IMG/VR virus record: IMGVR_UViG_3300030059_001343
Coordinates: 1-37,510 of that record
DNA from: a virus
Lineage: Duplodnaviria; Caudoviricetes
Length of the DNA stretch: 37,510 nt
Strand: one strand, 5' to 3'
A program made the translations under genes and the position numbers. Under the pieces are notes generated by a model, which was not told the origin of the DNA, searched no databases, and saw only the letters and a program-made list of their open reading frames with translations. Positions within the stretch are counted from its first letter, which is position 1; every line of letters starts with the position of its first letter. Shown here piece by piece: positions 14,130 to 37,510 of the stretch.

Positions 14130-14763
14130 GATTATCCCAGCCTGCTATGGCGACTTAGTTTACATCGCCCGGAATATGAGGGCGTTAGATGCTGAAGAGA
14201 TACTACCGCTGACATGGAGCGGAAAGCCGGAAGATTTAGCACAGCGGATATCTGTATCTGGCGGGTTGGCCCATGTTGCTCTCTCTGGGGTGATGCCTGT
14301 TGCTACTTGGGGAGCCAACATGACGCGCCCGGATTTCTGGAGTGTGTGGATGTTCACGACAGATCGATGGCCCAAAGTGGCGTTGACGGTGACCCGGCAC
14401 ATAAGGAATGAATTAATACCAGCCCTTGTTGCTGACGGTGCCGTTAGAGCCGATTGCTGGAGCATGGAAGGCCACGACGTTGCACATCGATGGCTTGAGG
14501 CGTTAGGTGCTACCAAAGAGGCGACGGCTGAAGACTACGGCCCTACCCGGAAAAAATTTTATTGTTATTCATGGACGCGATCCCGATTAGAACGCGATGG
14601 AGATTTTGATTATGTGCGTAGGACCACTAGCCCCAAAAATGCCAAAAATGCCGTCATTGCCAGTAATGCCGGAGCCTGCGGCTGTCGAAACAAAGCCAAC
14701 GCGAGACGATCCGCGAGTAAATCAAGCAGCAACAGCAACACGGCGCAAGCGGCTCTTGGCTAA
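14113..14763 (+). CDS. T7 gp13-like/GNAT-fold protein
   Basis: YIARNMRALDAEE, VWMFTTDRW, HDVAHRWLEALGA resembles the GNAT N..A..WL..LG motif. Confidence 0.7.
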   Translation: MLSLAEIIPACYGDLVYIARNMRALDAEEILPLTWSGKPEDLAQRISVSGGLAHVALSGVMPVATWGANMTRPDFWSVWMFTTDRWPKVALTVTRHIRNELIPALVADGAVRADCWSMEGHDVAHRWLEALGATKEATAEDYGPTRKKFYCYSWTRSRLERDGDFDYVRRTTSPKNAKNAVIASNAGACGCRNKANARRSASKSSSNSNTAQAALG

Positions 14764-14845
14764 AGGTCGTAAATCTACAATTCTATCTGGTGCTGGCGGC
14801 GATGTTAGTTCTGCAAATATTGGCAAAACACTGTTAGGTGGTTAA
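14612..14845 (+). CDS. Small virion-associated protein A (Met-Cys start, KTLLG tail; T7 gp6.7-like position)
   Basis: SD ggag then MCVGPLAPKMPKMP...GRKSTILSG...IGKTLLGG. Confidence 0.75.
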   Translation: MCVGPLAPKMPKMPSLPVMPEPAAVETKPTRDDPRVNQAATATRRKRLLAKGRKSTILSGAGGDVSSANIGKTLLGG

Positions 14846-14847
14846 AA

Positions 14848-15420
14848 ATGTGTGAATCTAATGACGGCGATGATGGCGGTGGTTCTGCCGGAGGCGTTCG
14901 CCAAAATCGCAACCATGATGGCAACGTTCCAAACGATTCTATGACTCCGAACAGGACAGGTCTTAGCGCTGATCAAGCAATTAGCATCGTTAACAATCCA
15001 TTTTCTCCTCATAATCAAGGCCAATATGGCGAAAAAGCTTTGGCGGCACTTGGTCCTATTATGCCGGGCGGCATTCCCTTAAATGCTGGACGAACTCTTG
15101 CTATGATGGGGGGGGTAAAAGCTGGAAAAGGTGGGAAAAATAATCTTGGCAATAAAAACGAAGACCGTGGCGATAACAACAGCCCTTCTGCAATGCTTAA
15201 AAAACAAGGCAGCAAGCGAGCCGTTGCTGGAAATGTTGCGGCTAAATCTAAAGAAAACGCGCCTTTAGCCAAAGACGATGACGATGAATTAGGTGGTGAT
15301 GCTATGGCGTTTGCTCCGTATACTCCTAGAAATCGTGTGACCCGGCAATCTACAATGCTTACAGGCTCAAGAGGAATACGAGCTCGCGCTAACATTGGCC
15401 GCACGTTGTTGGGCGCTTAA
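14848..15420 (+). CDS. Small virion-associated protein B (Met-Cys start, RTLLG tail)
   Basis: MCESNDG...RQSTMLTG...IGRTLLGA; low complexity. Confidence 0.7.
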   Translation: MCESNDGDDGGGSAGGVRQNRNHDGNVPNDSMTPNRTGLSADQAISIVNNPFSPHNQGQYGEKALAALGPIMPGGIPLNAGRTLAMMGGVKAGKGGKNNLGNKNEDRGDNNSPSAMLKKQGSKRAVAGNVAAKSKENAPLAKDDDDELGGDAMAFAPYTPRNRVTRQSTMLTGSRGIRARANIGRTLLGA

Positions 15421-15626
15421 TGTGTGTTCCCGGCGCTTATGGGAATCAAAAGCAATCAGGCGGCATGAAGATGGCGTCGTCATCGCCGGGCGGCAGGCTA
15501 GACCAAGCCCAACGCGCCAACGCTTCGGCCAGCGGCGGCGGAACAAACGGATCGACGATATTGTCAGGCACTCCGCGTAACAGCGGCGTAGATGCCTTAC
15601 GAAAAAATACCTATTTAGGGGTTTAG
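15420..15626 (+). CDS. Small virion-associated protein C (Met-Cys start, TYLG tail)
   Basis: TAATG coupling; MCVPGAYG...GSTILSG...RKNTYLGV. Confidence 0.7.
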   Translation: MCVPGAYGNQKQSGGMKMASSSPGGRLDQAQRANASASGGGTNGSTILSGTPRNSGVDALRKNTYLGV

Positions 15627-17256: not shown

Positions 17257-17523
17257 ATGAGCAAACCACAACAGAACAAGGTTCAAGCTGAGATTATGCA
17301 GGCGTACCGGGACGTTTTTCTTTACACGCCACAAGGTCAAGTCATTTTTAAAGATATGCTTAAAGTGTCCGGCCTGTATCAAATGAGCGGAGTTAGAGAC
17401 AACGCCGAGCTTCAGCATATGGAAGGCGGCAGAGATATGGTGCGTCGGATTATTACGATCCTCGCATTGGATGAAAACCAAATAACAAAATTAGCAATAG
17501 GAGAGACAATTAATGCCGAATGA
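17257..17523 (+). CDS. Small conserved protein between portal and scaffold (Bbp19-like)
   Basis: YRDVF..PQGQ.IFKDM, EGGRDMV..I pattern; synteny. Confidence 0.7.
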   Translation: MSKPQQNKVQAEIMQAYRDVFLYTPQGQVIFKDMLKVSGLYQMSGVRDNAELQHMEGGRDMVRRIITILALDENQITKLAIGETINAE

Positions 17524-18328
17524 TCTTGACGGGTCCGTACTTGATGCGGGTAACCCAGAAGACGCAGGGGCAACCCCCGCCTCTTGGAACGATGACGGAT
17601 ATAATGAGCTTGTAACAGCCAAAGGTTGGAGCGGTCCAAATGACGTTTTAGAGAGCTACGTAAATTTAGAAAAAGCTGTTGGTGCAGACAAAGTTGTCTT
17701 GCCAAATGCTGACACTGATTTACGCGAGTGGGAAGGCTGGTCAAAGCTTGGCACTCCTGATGAGGCTTCGGCGTATGAGCTCAATGCTCCAGAAGGACAC
17801 GAAAGTTACGACCAAGGTCTATCTGATTGGTTCCGCGAAGTTGCTTACGAAAACAAAATGCCAGCATCGATGGCTCAAGCTATGCACGACAAGTTTGTTG
17901 AGCGCATGAGTGAAGGCCAAATGAACCAATCTGAGCAAATCGATCAGCAAAACGATTTGTGGCATACAGAAATGCAAACCAAATTTGGAACGGCTTTTGA
18001 TGAGCGCGTAGCCGCCGCCAACTCAGCAGTTCGAGAATTTGGCGGTGAAGAATTACGCGATGTATTAAATCAAGCAAACCTTGGCATGCACCCCGTCGTC
18101 ATCAACGCCTTATCGAAAATTGGCGTTGCGCTAGGCAAAGGGCCACAATTTAAAGACAGTGAAAGCTCTGGGCAGTTTGGCACGACACCAGAAATGGCGA
18201 AGGAACAAATTGCCGCAATTCGGACTAACCCCGGATTAATGGACGCTTCGCATCCAGAGCATAAAGTCCTCAACCAAAAGTTGACGCGACTAACAGAATT
18301 AGCTTACGGGACTGAAATCGCAAGCTAA
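17513..18328 (+). CDS. Capsid scaffolding protein
   Basis: SY.NLEK.VG, KLGTPD...YEL, acidic helical body, HPEHK tail; directly before the capsid gene. Confidence 0.85.
   Translation: MPNDLDGSVLDAGNPEDAGATPASWNDDGYNELVTAKGWSGPNDVLESYVNLEKAVGADKVVLPNADTDLREWEGWSKLGTPDEASAYELNAPEGHESYDQGLSDWFREVAYENKMPASMAQAMHDKFVERMSEGQMNQSEQIDQQNDLWHTEMQTKFGTAFDERVAAANSAVREFGGEELRDVLNQANLGMHPVVINALSKIGVALGKGPQFKDSESSGQFGTTPEMAKEQIAAIRTNPGLMDASHPEHKVLNQKLTRLTELAYGTEIAS
17531..17556 (+). promoter_or_regulatory. Bulged RNA hairpin motif, copy 1 (inside the 5' end of the scaffold CDS)
   Basis: gggt-ccgta-cttga-tgcgg-gta-accc. Confidence 0.6.
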
Positions 18329-18329
18329 A

Positions 18330-18398
18330 CCAGATAACCCTCACGGGTCTGGGACAGACGGCGGGATAGACCGCGCAGGGTCCGATACGGGCAACCCT
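18330..18398 (+). promoter_or_regulatory. Structured capsid mRNA leader: three hairpins, two carrying the bulged motif
   Basis: ccag-ata-accc-tcac-gggt-ctgg; gcgg-gataga-ccgc; agggt-ccg-ata-cgg-gca-accct. Confidence 0.65.
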
Positions 18399-18441
18399 TT
18401 AATCATCTTTATTTTTAACCAACGCAAAAGGAGAATTGACC

Positions 18442-19323
18442 ATGTCAGTTCAAATTACTACGGCGTTCGTTGAGCAGTATAAAGGTAACGTCGAACACCT
18501 TGTTCAGCAAAAGGGATCTCGCCTTCGTGATTGTGTCTCAATCGAGACAGTCACTGGTGAAAACGCTTTTTTTGAGCAGATCGGTTCGGTTGCCGCTGTG
18601 GAACGCCAATCTCGTCACGAAGACACAGTTAGGATTGATACCCCTCACTCCCGTCGGCGTGTTTCTCTCGCCGACTATGTCTTCGCTGACCTCATTGAAG
18701 ATGAAGACCGCATTCGGATGCTAATTGATCCGACTGGTCCATATTCGACAGCCTGCGCTAACGCGATGGGCCGTTCAATGGATGACGTTATAATTGCCGC
18801 TGCTGACGGTACTGCTCAAACGGGCAAAACTGGAAGCACAGCAACGGACTATTTGGCGGCAATGACTGTTGACGTTCAAGTTGGAATTAGCCCTGCGGCT
18901 GACACTGGCTTAAATGTTGGCAAACTTCGTGCAGCAAAAAAGAACCTTGACGCTAATGAAGCTGAAGATAATGACCGAGTTATGGTTATTAACGCTATGC
19001 AACTTCAGAACTTGTTAGCAGAAACTGAAATTACTTCATCTGACTTTAATACGGTCAAAGCGTTAGTAGCTGGCGAAGTAAATTCCTTCATGGGTTTCCA
19101 AATCAAGCGCACCGAGCGCATTGGCGTGGATTCAAATGCTGACGACAAAGTTTTATACTGGCAAAAATCAGGCATGAAACTAGCTGTAGGAAAAGAGCCT
19201 ACCGTCAAAATCACCGAGCGTGCAGATAAAAACTACGCGACTCAAGTTTACACATCGATGTCGATTGGTGCTACCCGCATGCAAGAAGAGCTTGTTGGGT
19301 ACATCGAATGTCATCCAAGTTAA
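18442..19323 (+). CDS. Major capsid protein (BPP-1-like, HK97 fold)
   Basis: AFVEQY..NV..L.QQKGSRLR, DTPHSRRRV, AMGRSMDDVII, SSDFNTVKALVAGEVNSFMGF, MSIGATRMQEE; SD aaggag. Confidence 0.93.
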   Translation: MSVQITTAFVEQYKGNVEHLVQQKGSRLRDCVSIETVTGENAFFEQIGSVAAVERQSRHEDTVRIDTPHSRRRVSLADYVFADLIEDEDRIRMLIDPTGPYSTACANAMGRSMDDVIIAAADGTAQTGKTGSTATDYLAAMTVDVQVGISPAADTGLNVGKLRAAKKNLDANEAEDNDRVMVINAMQLQNLLAETEITSSDFNTVKALVAGEVNSFMGFQIKRTERIGVDSNADDKVLYWQKSGMKLAVGKEPTVKITERADKNYATQVYTSMSIGATRMQEELVGYIECHPS

Positions 19324-19837: not shown

Positions 19838-19866
19838 GGGGGGCTTCGGTCCCCCTTTCTTTTTTT
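19838..19866 (+). terminator. Intrinsic terminator after the head genes
   Basis: ggggggc-ttcg-gtccccc (cUUCGg loop) plus T tract. Confidence 0.92.
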
Positions 19867-19877
19867 AAGGAAATAAT

Positions 19878-20432
19878 ATGGCAACAACTTTTGTTGAAAT
19901 TGCAAATCGTGCGATTACGTTTTTAGGTGCAACTCCAATTACGTCTTTAAATGATGACACAAAAGAAGGCCGTGCTGTCAAAAGATTGTTCGAGCAAACA
20001 CGCGATCAGCTTTTACGAGATCATTCGTGGAACTTTGCAATTAAAAGAGTTAGCTTGGCGGCCAATACAACTGCACCAGTTTTCGAATATACGAATGCTT
20101 TTGATTTTCCAAACAACACTTTAAGAATTATTGATGTAAACACGACTGAACAATGGGCCGTCGAGGGTCAACAAATTGTTAGTGATGCTGCTGCACCTTT
20201 GCAAATTGTGTATGTGGAACGTGTTACAGATCCAAATTTATTTGATACAAAATTTATTGAAGCTTTCAGCCTTCGCCTTGCTGCTGACATCGCTTACGAC
20301 ATAACAGCATCACAAACCGTTGCGGCAACGGCTGAACAGAAATTTGCCGCAATGTTAAAAGAAGCTCGACTAGTTGATTCACAGGAATCACTCTCGGCTA
20401 GTGAACAATCATGGTTAAGTGTGAGAGTTTAA
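19878..20432 (+). CDS. Tail tubular protein A/adaptor (T7 gp11-like)
   Basis: VEIANRAITFLGA..ITSL, LLRDHSWNFA.KR..LA, FD..F.EA...RLAA.IA. Confidence 0.88.
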   Translation: MATTFVEIANRAITFLGATPITSLNDDTKEGRAVKRLFEQTRDQLLRDHSWNFAIKRVSLAANTTAPVFEYTNAFDFPNNTLRIIDVNTTEQWAVEGQQIVSDAAAPLQIVYVERVTDPNLFDTKFIEAFSLRLAADIAYDITASQTVAATAEQKFAAMLKEARLVDSQESLSASEQSWLSVRV

Positions 20433-28443: not shown

Positions 28444-31280
28444 TGGCAGTTGACCCACTAGCCCCAGTATCTGACCCAAACCCAACCCCGGCATTACAAC
28501 CGGGGTTTTTTGATGGGCAAATGGCATTAGAAAATGATCTTGTTCCGCAAGAACTAGCGCCCGGCGCTGGGCCTACCCCAGAGCAAGACTACCAAGTTGC
28601 TGGCTGGGGCAAAGCTATTAAGGGCATTAAAGACGCTCAAAAGATTTTAAAAGAGCATGAACGAACCAAAGAGAACCCAGACGATGCGTTTGACCTTGGA
28701 CGACCCCGTAAGCAAGGAAGCAACCCAAGGCTTATTGACGACACGCCCCCTGTAGAAGCTCCAACAGAACCAACCCCGATTAACGTTGATGAAGTTACTG
28801 TCGTTGAGACACCCGGAAAGCAAACGGCGGCGCGTGTCCCTGTAGACCAAGGCCAAGTTGAAGAGGTTGCAGAGGTTTATCAGAGGTTTATTAAAGACAC
28901 GCCTTTTGTCGCGCTAAAAGATTTTAACGTCAACAACCTAACGCAAGAGCAAGACGTTTTGGCTGTTATTGCGGCACAGTCCGAAGTCTATGCAAAGCAA
29001 ATTGACAATAAGACAGGCGGCAAAATCGCTCATCAAGTCACAGAGCAAATGGCTGACTTGGTTGGGTCGTCTCAAGGACGGTTAATGAAAAAATTGCTTG
29101 GGGGTGAAATCCTTTACGGCAAACAACCCGGCGAAGTCGCGGCAAATATGTTAGCGGCCCGTGATTTGTTGTTGGCGTCGTCACAAGAAGCCGACCGTTT
29201 AGCAAAAATAGTTATAACTGGTGACGCGCAAGGCCTTTTAAATGCTGGCTTTAAAAATGCAGACGAAGCCGAATTGGCAATGGAGCGCCAATTCGCTTTA
29301 AATGCGGCTATCCACGCGCAAGTAAAAGGCGCACAGACTGAAATAGCAAGAACACTATCATCATTTAACGTCGGGGCTAGAGGGGATGGTTTGCGTCAAC
29401 AGGCTATTTCAGACGTTTTGAAAAAAGCTGGGTCGGAAATTGGCGCAAGAGAACGAGCTGAAATATATTTAAATATCGAAGACCCAATTGCACGGGCTTA
29501 TTATTTGCGGAATGGAGCGGCGGCAAAAACCTTTGATGCTTTATACGAAGTTTGGATCAACGCTTTACTTTCAAGCCCTGTCACTCACACGGTCAATTTA
29601 TTAGGCAACCTTTTGTTTGCTGGAGGACAAATCCCGACACGGACTATAGCCGGGATGATGGGGCATATGCGACGCCAGCGTACTGGAGCAACGGACGGGG
29701 TTCAGCTAGGGGAAGACGCTGCAATGGCTCTTGGGTTTTATTACTCCGCTATTGATGCTGTTAAAATAGCTGGCAAGGTCTGGATGGACCCAACAAGCGA
29801 AATCGTTACAAAAATGGAGCCGGGTAAGAAATTTAGAGTAAATGCCGCATCTGCCGAAGCTTTCCAAAAAAGTGGCATTGTAGGGCAAGCAATCGATTTT
29901 GCCGGGCATGTAGCAACATTAGGAAGGTTTTCTACTCGCACTCTTGCCGCTGGAGATGTATTATTTAAAGTTGGGGCACAACGGGCTTCTATTTATGCAG
30001 ACGCTCTCCGCCGGGCAGAACGTGGCGGCGAGACTGACCCCACGTTATTCGCCGAGGATGTCGCTGACGGAATTGCAAACCCTTTAATTAAAGACCAAGA
30101 ACGATCCCAAGATTTTGGCCGCTTTATTACATTCCAATCAAAATTAGGAGAAAGTGGCAGACAATTGCAAGGTCTTGCCGCTCACCCTCTTATCCGTTGG
30201 TTCATCCCATTTTTAAAAACGCCAGTAAATATTATAAATCGTGCGTGGGAACACACGCCTTTTAAAATGATGAGTGATGATTACAAACGCGCTATCGCCG
30301 AAGGTGGTGAAGCCTCTGACCTTGCACAGGCAAGAGTAGCTTTAGGGACAACTACTATGGTTGCCGTCGCCGGGTTAGCTCATGCGGGTTATATTACTGG
30401 TGGTGGGCCATCTAATCCAAAGCTTAGAAGAAATTTAGAGCGGCAAGGATGGCAACCATACTCAATTCGGGTGGGGGACACTTACGTTTCATTTAAAAGG
30501 GTTGAACCCTTTGCAACCGTTATAGGGTTAGCCGCTGACTTGACTGAAATTGGTGGCAACGCCAAAGATCAAAAAAGTGTTCAAACTGCGCTTGCCGCAT
30601 TAGGCATGGCGTTTTCTAAAAATGTTACATCTAAAACGTGGATGACAGGCATGGCAAACTTGTTAGAGGCTGTCGAGAACCCCGATAGGTATGGGCCAAA
30701 AGCTGTAGAAGGGTTCATTCGATCTATGGTCCCGCGTATTGTGGCTCAAGGAGAAAAAGGTTACGACCCAGAAAAACGCTATGTGCGCGGACTTGTTGAT
30801 GCGCTTAAACAAGATGTTCCCGGCTGGAGTTCATCAATGCCAGCCGACCTTAATATTTGGGGAGAGCCAATAGTCTATCAATCTGGTGGATGGATTACTG
30901 GCATGATCAACCCATTTTATACAAAGGAATGGAAGCCTAACGATCTTGATGGGGAGCTTGACCGTCTAAAGATAGGCTTTAGTCGCCCACCTGAGACGAT
31001 CCCAAACACAGGCGGCAAACTTTTATTCGATCCTTGGGAGTATCACGACTACGCGGAGTATGCGGGACAAACGGCAAAAGCAAGTCTGGAAGATTTAATT
31101 AAAACGCCGCTTTATAAAAAAAGCAACGACGTAGTACAGCAGATGCGTATTGAGCAAATGTACAGCCAGTCCAAAGCCAAAGCATGGAATTATATGCTTA
31201 CTAAATCCAAATATGGGGAAACTCTACAGGATGTCGTTACTCAAGTTAATATGGAAAAGCTAAAGGAACTTAGAAAATGA
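28443..31280 (+). CDS. Large internal virion protein (gp16-like)
   Basis: INALLSSP.TH.VN, L.AGD..FK, IPFLKTPVNI, ITGGGP......GWQPYSI.VG..Y.SF.R.EP. Confidence 0.85.
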   Translation: MAVDPLAPVSDPNPTPALQPGFFDGQMALENDLVPQELAPGAGPTPEQDYQVAGWGKAIKGIKDAQKILKEHERTKENPDDAFDLGRPRKQGSNPRLIDDTPPVEAPTEPTPINVDEVTVVETPGKQTAARVPVDQGQVEEVAEVYQRFIKDTPFVALKDFNVNNLTQEQDVLAVIAAQSEVYAKQIDNKTGGKIAHQVTEQMADLVGSSQGRLMKKLLGGEILYGKQPGEVAANMLAARDLLLASSQEADRLAKIVITGDAQGLLNAGFKNADEAELAMERQFALNAAIHAQVKGAQTEIARTLSSFNVGARGDGLRQQAISDVLKKAGSEIGARERAEIYLNIEDPIARAYYLRNGAAAKTFDALYEVWINALLSSPVTHTVNLLGNLLFAGGQIPTRTIAGMMGHMRRQRTGATDGVQLGEDAAMALGFYYSAIDAVKIAGKVWMDPTSEIVTKMEPGKKFRVNAASAEAFQKSGIVGQAIDFAGHVATLGRFSTRTLAAGDVLFKVGAQRASIYADALRRAERGGETDPTLFAEDVADGIANPLIKDQERSQDFGRFITFQSKLGESGRQLQGLAAHPLIRWFIPFLKTPVNIINRAWEHTPFKMMSDDYKRAIAEGGEASDLAQARVALGTTTMVAVAGLAHAGYITGGGPSNPKLRRNLERQGWQPYSIRVGDTYVSFKRVEPFATVIGLAADLTEIGGNAKDQKSVQTALAALGMAFSKNVTSKTWMTGMANLLEAVENPDRYGPKAVEGFIRSMVPRIVAQGEKGYDPEKRYVRGLVDALKQDVPGWSSSMPADLNIWGEPIVYQSGGWITGMINPFYTKEWKPNDLDGELDRLKIGFSRPPETIPNTGGKLLFDPWEYHDYAEYAGQTAKASLEDLIKTPLYKKSNDVVQQMRIEQMYSQSKAKAWNYMLTKSKYGETLQDVVTQVNMEKLKELRK

Positions 31281-34138
31281 CCGTTTCATCCACCACGACA
31301 TCCGTCAGCTACACTGGCAACGGAAGCACAACAAATTTTGCGGTTACGTTTCCGTTCCAGAGTACTGGAACGACAGCCGAGCTAACCGTTGTTCAAAGAA
31401 CGATTGCGACGGGCGCTGAAACGACTTTGAGCTATACAACGCACTATACAGTCACAGGTGGCAACGGAACAACTGGAGTTGTAATTGCCGCTAGTGCACC
31501 TGCCAACACAGTTCAGTGGCACTTTAGAAGAAACACGACGACGACACAAACGGTAGATTATGTAACTAACGACCCTTTCCCTGCTGACACACATGAATTA
31601 GCTTTAGATCGTTTGGCAATGGCGGGACAAGAGCGGGACAGCGACATTGCTCAAGCCCTAAAATATTCAAACACATTTACTGGCAGTGCCTCTGTAATTG
31701 TTCCTGAACCTGTCGCAAGTTCTTTTCTTAAATGGAACGCCGCTGGCGATGCGTTAGAAAACTCAACAACAACTGCCGCGCAGTATCTTAGTGGCAATGG
31801 CACTGTAGCCGCTCCATTTTATAGTTATACTTCTGATCCAGACAGTGGGTCTTTTAGAATAGGCGCTAATAATTTGGGCGTTGCTGTAAATGGAGCTAAA
31901 GTTTTAGATGTTGCCACTTCAGGGCTCGGCGTTACGGGGACGTTAACGGCATCAAGCAATATTTCTGGAGTAAATGGCGCATTTTCTGGCGCAGTATCAG
32001 GCACGACTGGTACGTTCTCCGGCATATTAAAAACAGACGATGCGACAGACGCCACTAGTGGCACAGACGGCGCACTACAAACAGACGGTGGTTTGTCTGT
32101 AGTCAAAAAAGCCTTCATAGGCCAAACGTTAAAAGTTATTGGGGTAACAACTCACGGCGGCGATGTAGTTAGTGACACTGACAGCACTGACTCATTAGGG
32201 GCTACTGGGGCCAGATGGTTAAATGTTTGGGCCGATAAAATAAATAATATACTATCACCAACCGCGCAATACACATCGGCTGAAGCGACTAAATTAGCTG
32301 CTATTGAAGCATCTGCTGATGTCACTGATGCAACTAATGTAACGGCTGCTGGCGCGCTAATGGACAGCGAGCTGACTAATATTGCTGCTGTAAAAGCAAT
32401 AAATCAGAGCCTAGTGACAAGTGCTAATCCTACGTTTGGAAATTTAGCCGCGACAAATTTAGACGGTATTGTCGGAGCGTCAACGGCAAGGGCTGGTACG
32501 TTTGCTGGTCTAACTGGGACTGTAATAGAAGCCACGACATCATTAGAACTAGCATCAGGTGCAACAGTAACAGGTTTTGACGCAACCGCTTCATTAGGCT
32601 CAAGCAACACTTTAGTTCCAACTCAGGGAGCAGTTAAGACTTATGTAGACAATGCATTAGCCGCTAGTGCTGTCTGGCAAGATGTTATTTATCTTACAGT
32701 TAGCGATAGTGTCTACTCCCCATCAGCTAGTTTAAACGGTAGGTTTTACGCAGTTGACACAAGCGGAGGTGCGGTAACTATAAATCTACCGCAAATCTCA
32801 GCAGCTGGTAATGCGTGGGCGCTAGGCATTAAAAAGACTACATCTGACACTAACGCTATTACTGTTGTCAGATACAGCGGTGATGAGATAGATGAAATTG
32901 CTGGTAATATAACTATTGGCGTACACAACTCTGGGCGTATATTTTTAGCAGATACCGGAGCTTCTCCAGATAGCTGGACTACCCAACAATTTGGCGCTGT
33001 TGGCGGCAACATGACTGTACAAAACTATACAGTCTCTACTCATTTTACAGCTGGTAGTACAACGGCTCTTACAGTTTCATCCGCACCAGCGTCGGAACAA
33101 AACATCGTTGTCACATTCGATGGCGTGACCCAGCACCACGACACATATGCAATTTCAGGAACGACAGTTACATTCTCAAGTGCAATTCCTACAGGTACAG
33201 CTAACGTAGAAATAAGATGGGGTGGTATTCTAGCTATCAATAGTCCGGGTGATGGAACAGTAACAACAGCTAAATTTGCTGCTGGCCCAGCCAAAGATTT
33301 AAATGCATTGGCCGTAACTAACAGTATTATGTATGTCGGCGATGGCTCAAACATTGTAGCTGAAACAGGAGCAACGCTAAGAACGTCTATTGGTGTAGGC
33401 ACAGGCAATAGTCCACAACTTACAGGCATTGAGCTAGGACATGCTACTGACACAACACTAACAAGAGTAAGCGCAGGAGTTATTGCTGTTGAAGGAGCTA
33501 ATGTTGTTACGGGAGCATCTCCTCAACTTACAGGTATTGAGTTGGGACATGCTACTGACACAACTATAACAAGAATAAGTGCTGGAGTTGCTGCTGTAGA
33601 AGGAGCAGTTATAAAAACTGTTGGTAAGGAAAGCATATGGATACCAGCTGGAGCTATGTATCCAAGTACTACTAACCCTTGTGCTGATTTAGCACAAGTA
33701 GAAACAACTGCATTAAGACCTGATTTAAAAGTATTAGATTTTGCAGCAGCAGCGGATGATTTTGCTCAATTTTCTATAGCTTTTCCTAAATCATGGAACG
33801 AAGGCACAGTAACGTATCAAGCTTTTTGGACAGTAACAGGAACTAATACTGGAACGGTAGTATGGCAACTAGGTGGTATTGCCGTGTCAAGTGATGACAC
33901 TACTAATACAGCATTCGGAACATTAATTGCGAGTACCGCACTGGCTCATAGCGGCACATCAAACGATTTAATGGTTAGTGCGGAAAGCGGGGCCGTTACA
34001 ATAGCAGGAAGTCCGGCTGCAAACGATTTATGTTTTTTCCAGATAAATAACGATGTTTCAGCTTCGGGCCAAACTGGCGTAGTAAGACTATTAGGAATCA
34101 AAGTATTCTTTACTACTGATGCAACAAATGACGCATAA
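31277..34138 (+). CDS. Tail fibre protein (T7 gp17-like N-terminal anchor)
   Basis: MTVSSTT..VSYTGNGSTT.F..TF, Y..NDPFPA.THE.ALDRL; Thr/Gly/Ala-rich modular shaft. Confidence 0.88.
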   Translation: MTVSSTTTSVSYTGNGSTTNFAVTFPFQSTGTTAELTVVQRTIATGAETTLSYTTHYTVTGGNGTTGVVIAASAPANTVQWHFRRNTTTTQTVDYVTNDPFPADTHELALDRLAMAGQERDSDIAQALKYSNTFTGSASVIVPEPVASSFLKWNAAGDALENSTTTAAQYLSGNGTVAAPFYSYTSDPDSGSFRIGANNLGVAVNGAKVLDVATSGLGVTGTLTASSNISGVNGAFSGAVSGTTGTFSGILKTDDATDATSGTDGALQTDGGLSVVKKAFIGQTLKVIGVTTHGGDVVSDTDSTDSLGATGARWLNVWADKINNILSPTAQYTSAEATKLAAIEASADVTDATNVTAAGALMDSELTNIAAVKAINQSLVTSANPTFGNLAATNLDGIVGASTARAGTFAGLTGTVIEATTSLELASGATVTGFDATASLGSSNTLVPTQGAVKTYVDNALAASAVWQDVIYLTVSDSVYSPSASLNGRFYAVDTSGGAVTINLPQISAAGNAWALGIKKTTSDTNAITVVRYSGDEIDEIAGNITIGVHNSGRIFLADTGASPDSWTTQQFGAVGGNMTVQNYTVSTHFTAGSTTALTVSSAPASEQNIVVTFDGVTQHHDTYAISGTTVTFSSAIPTGTANVEIRWGGILAINSPGDGTVTTAKFAAGPAKDLNALAVTNSIMYVGDGSNIVAETGATLRTSIGVGTGNSPQLTGIELGHATDTTLTRVSAGVIAVEGANVVTGASPQLTGIELGHATDTTITRISAGVAAVEGAVIKTVGKESIWIPAGAMYPSTTNPCADLAQVETTALRPDLKVLDFAAAADDFAQFSIAFPKSWNEGTVTYQAFWTVTGTNTGTVVWQLGGIAVSSDDTTNTAFGTLIASTALAHSGTSNDLMVSAESGAVTIAGSPAANDLCFFQINNDVSASGQTGVVRLLGIKVFFTTDATNDA
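33410..33608 (+). repeat. Tandem 108-bp (36-aa) intragenic repeat in the tail fibre
   Basis: SPQLTGIELGHATDTT(L/I)TR(V/I)SAGV(I/A)AVEGA begins at 33410 and 33518. Confidence 0.9.
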
Positions 34139-34154: not shown

Positions 34155-34955
34155 ATGACAAATTTTGGTTATAACACTTTAGGATTTGGTTCTTTTCCAA
34201 ATCGTGCTGTCACATCTGGCGCAGTTCAATTTCCGGGTGAAACATGTCTTGAGCGGGGTGCGGATTTAACTAACTGTGCGGATAGTCAGTTTTTGACGTA
34301 TAGTTTTTGGTTTCGTTTGGACGCAGGTAATGATGGAGCTTTTCTTTACTCCGCTGGTGAAAATAGATTTTTTATTAAAAATACTGGTTCTGCTGGTTTT
34401 GGTATTGAGGGACGCCAAACGGGGGGTAACACTCGTATCTTGGATTTAAAACATGCATGGGCTACGTTAAACGCTAACAACGCGGATACGACAAACTGGC
34501 ATCATGCTTGCGGTTCGGTGGATACGAGAGCATCTGCTAATAATAACTTCTTTATAGATGATAACCTTGCAAATGGATACCGAAACGGCGCTTTAAATAG
34601 TGGTAATGTGGATTTTACAAACTCTGAACACACAATCGGAGCACTACCATCGTCTGAACCCGGTGGTGCGCGTGTTAACAAGTATCTGTTAATGTCTATC
34701 TATGAATTTTGGATAGGGCATGGTCAGAACTTTCCTTTGACAACTACTTCTAACAGAAGAAAATTTATTAATGCAGATTTAACACCTGTTGGTCTTGGTT
34801 CAGACGGTAGCACACCGACAGGAACCGCGCCTTTAATTTATATGACAGGAACACCTAGTGAATTTGTTAATAATTTAGGGTCAGGCGGTGACTTTTCTGT
34901 AACAGAAGGTGCTTTAGTTGACGTTGGCCCACCAACTAAAGCGAATGCGCCTTAA
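34155..34955 (+). CDS. LamG/concanavalin-like lectin-fold tail-associated protein
   Basis: FGYNTLGFG start, FLTYSFWFR, TNWHHACGSVD, PTGTAPLIY...NNLGSGGDF. Confidence 0.7.
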   Translation: MTNFGYNTLGFGSFPNRAVTSGAVQFPGETCLERGADLTNCADSQFLTYSFWFRLDAGNDGAFLYSAGENRFFIKNTGSAGFGIEGRQTGGNTRILDLKHAWATLNANNADTTNWHHACGSVDTRASANNNFFIDDNLANGYRNGALNSGNVDFTNSEHTIGALPSSEPGGARVNKYLLMSIYEFWIGHGQNFPLTTTSNRRKFINADLTPVGLGSDGSTPTGTAPLIYMTGTPSEFVNNLGSGGDFSVTEGALVDVGPPTKANAP

Positions 34956-36809: not shown

Positions 36810-37510
36810 TGATATTTTTATCTTCACTTCCGCGAAGCGGCACAACTCTCTTAACGTCTTTGTTAAATCAACGCGATGATGTATATGCCACTCCAACTTC
36901 AAATTTAACTTATATATTAGAAGAAACTGTTTTAAAATGGAATAGCAGAAAAGAAACACAAGCTCAAAGCGGCACAAACGAAGACCTTCACCGTCTTTTA
37001 AACGGAATAGTCGATAGTCGATATACAACAGATAAATTAATATTTGATAATGGGCGAGATTGGGCAGACCCTAAATTTATTAATACAATGCAACAAGTGG
37101 TAGGCGATGTTAAAATTGTTGCAACCGTTAGACCTGTTGCTGAGTGTGTTGCTTCATTTGTAAAAATAGCTAAACCAACTAATATTAATAATTTTCTAAG
37201 CTCAAGTAAGTTAATAGAACATCTTATGATTTCTTATCAACTCCTTAAAACTGGGTATGAAAAATATCCTGATTGTTTTTTATTGATTGAGTATAAAAAT
37301 CTTGTTACTCAGACACAAAAAGAACTTGACCGAATATCAAAGTTTGTTGGATTAGAAAAGTTTAAACATGATTTAAACAACGTGCCAGAAAGTAAAGAAG
37401 TTGATAATGCTTGGAACATTAAAGATTTGCACAAAGTTCGCAAAAAAGTATCTAGAAACAACTATTCAGCTAAAAAAATATTAGGCAATAAACTTTATGA
37501 TTTCTATCAA
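36809..37510 (+). CDS. Sulfotransferase domain; N-terminal part of a ~500-aa fusion continuing through the junction to 900; not in ORF track
   Basis: Hand translation MIFLSSLPRSGTTLLTSLLNQ...KIVATVRPVAECVASF...LLIEYKNLVTQ has no stop before the repeat. 5'-PSB motif PRSGTT and 3'-PB motif R.....AS. Confidence 0.88.
   Translation, partial: MIFLSSLPRSGTTLLTSLLNQRDDVYATPTSNLTYILEETVLKWNSRKETQAQSGTNEDLHRLLNGIVDSRYTTDKLIFDNGRDWADPKFINTMQQVVGDVKIVATVRPVAECVASFVKIAKPTNINNFLSSSKLIEHLMISYQLLKTGYEKYPDCFLLIEYKNLVTQTQKELDRISKFVGLEKFKHDLNNVPESKEVDNAWNIKDLHKVRKKVSRNNYSAKKILGNKLYDFYQ
37412..37509. repeat. Terminal direct repeat, right copy
   Basis: Identical to 1-98. Confidence 0.95.

Follow-up and report, generated by a model that had tools for sequence, protein, structure and literature searches.

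A recurrent bulged RNA hairpin at the scaffold and capsid genes of podophages, with the N-terminus of the scaffold as its probable reader

Why does the same small bulged hairpin recur three times around the scaffold and capsid genes of a podophage? The question is raised by a 37,510-nucleotide stretch of viral DNA, analysed here at its full length and referred to as the window, which is a podophage genome with terminase, portal (PF12236), Bbp19-like, 271-aa scaffold-like and PF19821 capsid genes. An initial annotation, made from the sequence alone, proposed that the hairpins are an RNA operator bound by the scaffold, the capsid or the Bbp19-like protein.

The three copies read on the + strand exactly as that annotation had them (Table 1), and each is present in the minimum-free-energy fold of its own fragment. 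Folding z-scores of the single hairpins are unremarkable (-1.05 to -1.63 for the three window copies), and folding energy alone is therefore no proof. A strict pattern, derived post hoc from the copies themselves, has three matches on the + strand and none on the - strand. In 300 dinucleotide shuffles the mean was 0.04: a single match turned up in 12 of them and two matches in none. With a relaxed descriptor, nine + strand matches were found in the window (shuffle mean 2.3). The further matches to this descriptor (20318-20354, 29270-29295, 31301-31324, 31773-31800, 34721-34746, 37382-37410 and 17503-17527) are probably mostly chance; that at 20318-20354 has a 7-bp outer stem and lies close to the end of the tail tubular gene.

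Table 1. Positions of the hairpin copies and neighbouring features in the window, and of group I introns in related loci
Feature	Position	Strand	Remarks
Bbp19-like gene	17257..17523	+	PF25181, E 1.8e-8; overlaps scaffold start
Scaffold-like (capsid assembly) gene, 271 aa	17513..18328	+	phrog_3742, E 2e-30; phrog_458, E 4e-18
Copy 1	17531..17556	+	18 nt after scaffold AUG; predicted repressive operator
Copy 1, anatomy			C17535-G17549 pair; U17534·G17550 wobble; bulge UAA 17551-17553; G17533-C17554
Scaffold N-terminal two-helix mini-domain, residues 25-64	17585..17704	+	putative RNA reader
Mini-domain key residues	W39 at 17627; S48 at 17654; Y49 at 17657	+	
Copy 2	18330..18352	+	arms swapped, bulge on 5' arm
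Copy 2, anatomy			G18333-C18349; A18334-U18348; bulge UAA 18335-18337
Middle module	18357..18374	+	GAC, then 4-bp stem closing GANAGA hexaloop (loop 18365-18370)
Copy 3	18377..18398	+	ends 43 nt 5' of capsid AUG
Copy 3, anatomy			C18382-G18390; U18381·G18391 wobble; bulge CAA 18392-18394
G-poor spacer and capsid Shine-Dalgarno	18399..18441	+	AGGAG 18429-18433
Major capsid protein gene, 293 aa	18442..19323	+	PF19821, E 7.8e-88; phrog_3437
Group I introns, L038	1770-1959, 2091-2310		
Group I intron, L049	2543-2736		
Group I intron, L050	3022-3245		
Group I intron, L052	148-371		
Group I intron, L053	3605-3831		
Group I intron, L055	3613-3825		
Group I intron, L059	3235-3454		
Group I intron, L171	4680-4890		

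Gene position, the PHROG matches and a mainly helical AlphaFold2 model (residues 1-26 predicted disordered) point to a scaffold, as do matches of an HMM, built from the relatives of the window protein, to proteins annotated 'capsid assembly protein' in the cultured phages HTVC203P and HTVC100P. The window capsid and that of pelagiphage HTVC010P share 53% identity. Eight related loci carry group I introns (RF00028, 59-89 bits) within or at their major capsid gene, and not always in the same place; the window capsid gene carries none. Before the portal gene, at 14597-15626, stand three short low-complexity ORFs, the first matching phrog_831 and two of the three ending in a similar G-x-x-L-L-G motif.

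The possibility that this is an undescribed RNA family holds against Rfam: the window gave 0 matches (best E 3.5 for 17400-18500), and a search of 46 related loci against Rfam 15, with both gathering and E-value thresholds, returned nothing but group I introns or chance matches. No description of the element was found in the non-subscription literature searched.

If the hairpins are functional, relatives should retain them. Loci found by capsid (79) or scaffold (15), together with HTVC010P, were reduced to 56 distinct leaders by removing duplicates and truncated leaders. In this protein-selected set a general descriptor detects a copy with the bulge on the 3' arm in 50/56 leaders and one with the bulge on the 5' arm in 50/56, compared to 4% and 11% of shuffled sequences and to 19/56 and 17/56 on the reverse strand. 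Leader copies persist down to approximately 27% capsid identity. The relatives are an independent confirmation of the element. A blind DNA pattern recovered 131 loci in 118 distinct contexts which, classified with HMMs partly built from those same matches, comprise 64 scaffold starts, 30 sites before capsid genes, one after scaffold and 23 others; the last, by eye, are mostly GC-rich chance matches, with two truncated scaffold starts.

The copy at the scaffold start occurs as type B in 31 of 55 protein-selected starts, and as type A in HTVC010P; equivalents of copy 1 begin 12-21 nt after the AUG (median 17, n=31). Fifteen named phage records were compared. In HTVC010P, HTVC203P and HTVC100P the scaffold copy has its arms swapped, at +11; ZP6 and MEP301 have variant loops, and SI2 gave no match. 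Ralstonia phage DU_RP_II possesses all three copies. Neither the element nor the scaffold mini-domain (mini-domain E 0.42-1.4) is present in three cultured phages that have no leader gap. Marine T7-like phages, whose capsid leaders carry the element, also have the mini-domain. Judged by sequence comparison, the element spans HTVC010P-like podophages, related prophage-like elements and T7-like marine phages. Stored viral stretches matching four patterns are estimated at ~460, 130, 2100 and 2000, of which true sites are only part.

The initial annotation also noted a middle hairpin between copies 2 and 3. It is present, but it is a separate and less universal module, found in 19/56 protein-selected leaders; its stem pairs covary, and it occurs in 26/114 leaders with 11 different stems. 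Many leaders hold an extra insert between this module and the downstream copy. The spacer is 9% G across the protein-selected leaders. In pelagiphage-type genomes a small gene lies between scaffold and capsid leader (L081 4727-4903, L453 1426-1605, L454 1416-1601, L457 1377-1562).

The argument that the repeats reflect RNA structure held in all its parts: structure, conservation in relatives and covariation. Codon usage in the coding copies (31/55 scaffold starts) is nearly invariant: Gly is GGG in 31/31 (background 14%), Ser is TCC in 29/31 (17%) and Asn is AAC in 26/26 (48%), and both TCT cases are paired with a compensating ACA. In 8/62 pattern-found starts with an assignable AUG (two more, with no assignable AUG, were left out) the 3' arm lies in another reading frame. 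A 13-sequence leader alignment has 7/17 consensus pairs changing on both sides. That a DNA site or a peptide constraint (G-S-x-x-x-G-N-P) lies behind the repeats is very improbable and largely refuted: copy 1 does encode a recognisable peptide in 31/55 starts, but the synonymous codons are fixed, arms shift frame, loop length varies and the encoded region is predicted to be disordered, while arms swapped on the same strand, the G·U/A·C exchange described below and a fixed orientation to the genes count against it too. Arm swapping on one strand, with variable loops, does not fit double-stranded DNA.

The same comparisons correct the anatomy. The C-G pair of the first description stands; its RYA bulge with a U-A pair does not, covariation favouring a U·G or C·A wobble with a Y-A-(A/C) bulge. 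The pairing register needs to be shifted by one. In the 183 copies that no search pattern had forced, the first loop base and the base across from it form G·U 88 times and A·C 70 times (158/183), two pairs that are near-isosteric, and the exchange holds across all copies in 23/25 genomes whose copies differ there. Since the first loop base tracks its opposite base and the fourth is independent of it, the core is a C-G pair, a wobble, a Y-A-(A/C) bulge and a short stem. Of the coding copies, 28/29 keep the third and fourth C-side pairs; the descriptor imposes the first two pairs per side and leaves these free, though its score cut-off favours them. The element is not a kink-turn, in which tandem G·A and A·G pairs come after a three-base bulge; here the bulge is flanked by the G·U/A·C wobble and Watson-Crick pairs. 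A variant in L021, L025 and L055 was considered as a shorter bulge and rejected: it is an A-to-C change at loop position 4. By eye, further loop states are common to both leader copies, GUAG in ZP6 (L460 1590-1703; scaffold Q48-F49) and CAUA in phage MEP301 (L462 leader; scaffold W49).

Which protein, then, reads the element? Bulge position 4 is informative. It is the same in both leader copies in 97/98 phages, and in all three copies in 48/48 (42 A, 6 C). The C state is scattered over a quick capsid tree, from which 26 leaders with short capsid ORFs were left out, and for 66 shared rows 7 changes of state are counted with the scaffold tree and 9 with the capsid tree (overall range 7-11). Such concerted change of the copies suggests a single reader.

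Across 98 scaffolds, Ser48 is present in 66 of 77 A-state but 1 of 21 C-state proteins, and His49 in 16 of 21 C-state and 0 of 77 A-state proteins. When branch co-change is tested on a tree restricted to scaffold columns beyond residue 66, Y49, W39, S48 and V50 rank highest of 253 scaffold columns (log10p -4.55 to -3.54); N14, the codon of which lies inside the RNA copy, comes next and acts as a positive control. The best of 281 capsid columns reaches log10p -1.95, and the best of 78 Bbp19-like columns -2.14, a single marginal column. The test is a home-made parsimony approximation in which only Y49 passes Bonferroni over 612 columns. Of the three binders originally proposed, the scaffold therefore gains support, through co-change at residues 39, 48, 49 and 50, and the capsid and Bbp19-like proteins are not supported. 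Shared linkage is disfavoured as an explanation, because the co-change signal lies ~700 nt from the leader and not in the adjoining scaffold C-terminus or capsid N-terminus.

In the first data set alone, 6 independent pairs gave no significant result (p 0.25-0.63). New loci were then drawn with matched C and A patterns, which gave 116 and 115 distinct matches, 36 and 27 of them before a capsid gene and 14 and 11 with an alignable mini-domain (two loci with no capsid match were dropped, one fitting and one not). In this out-of-sample set residue 48 is Ala or Gly in 14/14 C-state and Ser or Thr in 10/11 A-state scaffolds (Fisher p 2.7e-5 for Ser, uncorrected for the tree). On a capsid tree of 99 rows, old and new combined, 12 independent pairs divide into 6.8 changing the same way, 0.0 the opposite way and 5.2 unchanged (median p 0.016, range 0.016-0.063). 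A compound rule, 'Y39 or H49', fits 20/21 C-state and 0/77 A-state scaffolds; it was discarded as it performs worse out of sample than residue 48.

The residues concerned fall in a mini-domain with helices predicted at residues 28-37 and 42-56 (pLDDT 88-95) and conserved W25, K37, G38, Y49, L52, E53, G57 and P64. In the window it is not strongly basic, with E47 where relatives often have K. No solved structure resembling the scaffold or the mini-domain was found (best Z 2.0), which is not proof of a new fold; in a structure atlas the nearest named cluster has PF05396 on 22% of its members (score 0.84), a lead only. From these sequence patterns we consider with some confidence that the scaffold is the reader, and that its N-terminal mini-domain is the likely site of recognition.

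The element, its nucleotide-level constraint, its placement, its concerted copies and the co-change of bulge position 4 with residues 39, 48, 49 and 50 come from sequence comparison. On this basis we propose, as the account that we think somewhat probable, that the three hairpins are one conserved mRNA element bound by the mini-domain of unassembled scaffold, repressing scaffold and favouring capsid; direct binding, repression at +18 and activation of capsid translation would be its components. The mini-domain of unassembled scaffold would bind the copy at +18 and lower scaffold translation. A copy 12-21 nt past the AUG lies at the downstream edge of the initiating ribosome, where the protein-stabilised hairpin would sit. 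Copy 1 alone does not occlude the scaffold ribosome-binding site (RBS), and repression there would consequently need bound protein. Given scaffold as reader, self-repression is very probable. Binding of scaffold to the two leader copies would favour capsid expression; were capsid protein limiting, free scaffold would rise and the circuit would rebalance both. The scaffold:capsid stoichiometry control that was first envisaged may be exercised in this way.

A positive effect on capsid output, by a switch or another route, is the weakest step. In approximately half of the family, the bound downstream hairpin would stay shut, such that its 3' arm could not pair with the capsid Shine-Dalgarno region. 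The predicted duplex of this arm with its own Shine-Dalgarno partner has an energy of -10.2 kcal/mol versus -8.0 for mismatched partners (permutation p 5e-5); the own partner beats GC-matched ones in 32/55 leaders and is in the top 10% for 10/55, the 55 leaders being non-redundant yet not fully independent. Fixing the downstream hairpin lowers the cost of opening the RBS by at least 1 kcal/mol in 26/55 leaders and raises it in 1/55; in 29/55 the gain is below 1 kcal/mol. The mean gain is 2.15 kcal/mol; it drops to 0.49 when a GC-matched foreign RBS is substituted, and for the upstream copy it is -0.11. Gains of at least 3 kcal/mol occur in 19/55 leaders versus 2/55 controls. The effect rises with GC content. 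In the window itself, fixing copy 3 changes RBS opening by 0.0 kcal/mol and the arm-Shine-Dalgarno duplex ranks below most foreign partners. Because this pairing is not predicted there, the window leader copies would act otherwise, by transcript stabilisation or by recruiting scaffold to nascent capsid. The fullest version of the proposal, a two-output assembly sensor with a new RNA-binding domain, a Ser48-A/Ala-Gly48-C code, scaffold off, capsid on via a freed Shine-Dalgarno sequence and an analogous site at +62..+96 in P22, is possible but tentative.

It may instead be that scaffold binds and the leader copies tether it to capsid mRNA, for capture of new capsid protein during translation, or protect a processed capsid transcript, with no switch at initiation. 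The window's clade, where no anti-Shine-Dalgarno effect is predicted, the placement of two copies plus middle module 44-112 nt from the AUG and, weakly, the start of a relative's RNA contig at 18312 are all compatible with this; yet phage-specific complementarity of arm and Shine-Dalgarno in part of the family (10/55 in the top 10%; 19/55 versus 2/55) would then be superfluous, and we regard the explanation as unlikely but not negligible. This metatranscriptome contig, of a relative ~92% identical, starts 18 nt before copy 2 and holds leader and capsid but no scaffold. It is a weak hint: the RNA evidence comes from one study and one RNA run (share 0.13), and contigs show neither transcription nor RNA ends. 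A promoter scan gave nothing above chance at the window leader. In some clades (leaders L057-L063, L019, L024, L458 and L460) sigma-70-like -35/-10 boxes, identified by eye, lie directly 5' of the element, which suggests a capsid-specific transcript. Downstream of capsid comes a 164-aa gene, and behind it, at 19838-19855, lies the only clear intrinsic terminator of the scan; a reading of the leader as an attenuator was dropped on account of this position.

Less probable is a reader other than scaffold (capsid, Bbp19-like or a host factor), the scaffold residues covarying by shared history or contact. The residue rule has exceptions in Yersinia phage YeP5 (C state, S48), L354, L730 and L207, with mixed copies in L694; the C-state mini-domains are partly alike and recombination could share them, leaving fewer independent events; and the co-change comparison covered three genes, scaffold, capsid and Bbp19-like. 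Against these points, no capsid column falls below log10p -2 and only one Bbp19-like column reaches -2.1, the out-of-sample and capsid-tree tests hold across distant lineages, T7-like included, and a host factor would not account for repeated concerted switches between sister phages. Slighter still is the chance that free scaffold represses both genes and so ties total head-protein output to assembly. The spacer is G-poor, and a protein bound 44-65 nt 5' of the AUG can block ribosome standby on an A/U-rich spacer; but the fixed downstream hairpin opens the RBS in 26/55 leaders and closes it in 1/55, and shutting off capsid under scaffold excess would presumably deepen the imbalance.

The favoured account, repression of scaffold and support of capsid by one reader, has counterparts among known systems. 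The coat-protein operators of MS2 and PP7 and the autogenous operators of T4 gp32 and gp43 are likewise small bulged hairpins close to a start codon, to which a structural or replication protein of the phage binds; as expected of an autogenous operator, a conserved RNA structure with codon-level constraint lies near the initiation region of the scaffold gene (31/55 starts). The present element differs in having a wobble and a three-base bulge, a variable apical loop and either polarity, in serving two target genes with predicted opposite outputs, and in a candidate reader domain for which no solved relative was found. It also resembles riboswitch-type anti-Shine-Dalgarno ON switches and protein-activated leaders such as Mu Com/mom, in that a ligand-stabilised hairpin would free the RBS (predicted in 26/55 leaders); here, however, an assembly chaperone would serve as ligand and sense the state of assembly, and the switch is not predicted in the window. 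Autogenous regulation by gp32 is mentioned in passages of PMC10690425, where Fremin et al. (2023) describe GP20-a and GP20-b (RF02991, RF03003) and candidate RNAs before GP20 and capsid genes, five of which precede PHA00201 (T7-like capsid) genes. According to these passages they too are structured, conserved RNAs 5' of phage head genes with a proposed cis-regulatory role; the passages name no reader, coding copy or mechanism. The T7-like capsid candidates might overlap with T7-like members of the element.

The inferred circuit works like the autoregulation of P22, homology apart: there is no detectable homology between the proteins (hhalign probability 0.22%; mini-domain HMM E at least 0.9), and the P22 scaffold and capsid genes overlap and have no leader, whereas window-type phages carry the element twice before capsid. 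The P22 scaffolding protein (gene 8) is reportedly subject to translational autoregulation (Wyckoff and Casjens, 1985). In P22-like gene 8, 5/5 four-fold sites of codons 4-32 are fixed compared to 6/68 elsewhere (20/24 records, near-duplicates and a broken gene being left out). The start of the gene (L080 3893-3990, L308-L330) holds an invariant 5-bp hairpin at about +20..+33 with a loop of varying length (17/17), another helix of 5 bp and, at +62, a look-alike core. The last occurs in 13/24 P22-like records, against a relaxed-pattern background of 0.05 per 100 nt; it has a mismatch at the second pair, lies ~45 nt further from the AUG and competes with the other invariant stems. These stems are a lead, as candidates for the autoregulatory site; the pairs are invariant and so lend no covariation support. 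The arginine-rich stretch of gp8, residues 64-74, could be the reader. One P22-like prophage has an in-frame stop at codon 13 of its scaffold gene (L312 1537-1539). A search of viral contigs with P22 gp8 returned 80 near-identical loci, of no use for covariation, and no structural account of the P22 site was found in the literature searched. The N-terminal part of the P22 scaffold is reported to be implicated in control of its own translation (10.1101/2022.12.13.520362), a likeness to the mini-domain proposed above. T7 itself has no core at its gene 9 or gene 10 starts and no mini-domain match (hhalign probability 0.4%).

How the amounts of scaffold and capsid are matched in tailed phages has long been asked, and P22 offers the one genetic precedent. 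Sequence comparison supports as real a widespread cis-regulatory RNA, unmatched in Rfam, for which the structure is now corrected and a specific candidate reader named; it is present in cultured marine phages (HTVC010P-type pelagiphages, a Vibrio breoganii phage and Alteromonas phage ZP6). It offers an RNA delimited to 26 nt, a candidate reader of 40 residues and a rule linking residue to nucleotide, and, as a by-product, conserved stems at the P22 gene 8 coding start as concrete candidates for an autoregulatory site. The natural A, C and G loop variants, with their matching putative readers, would be raw material for orthogonal RNA-protein pairs.
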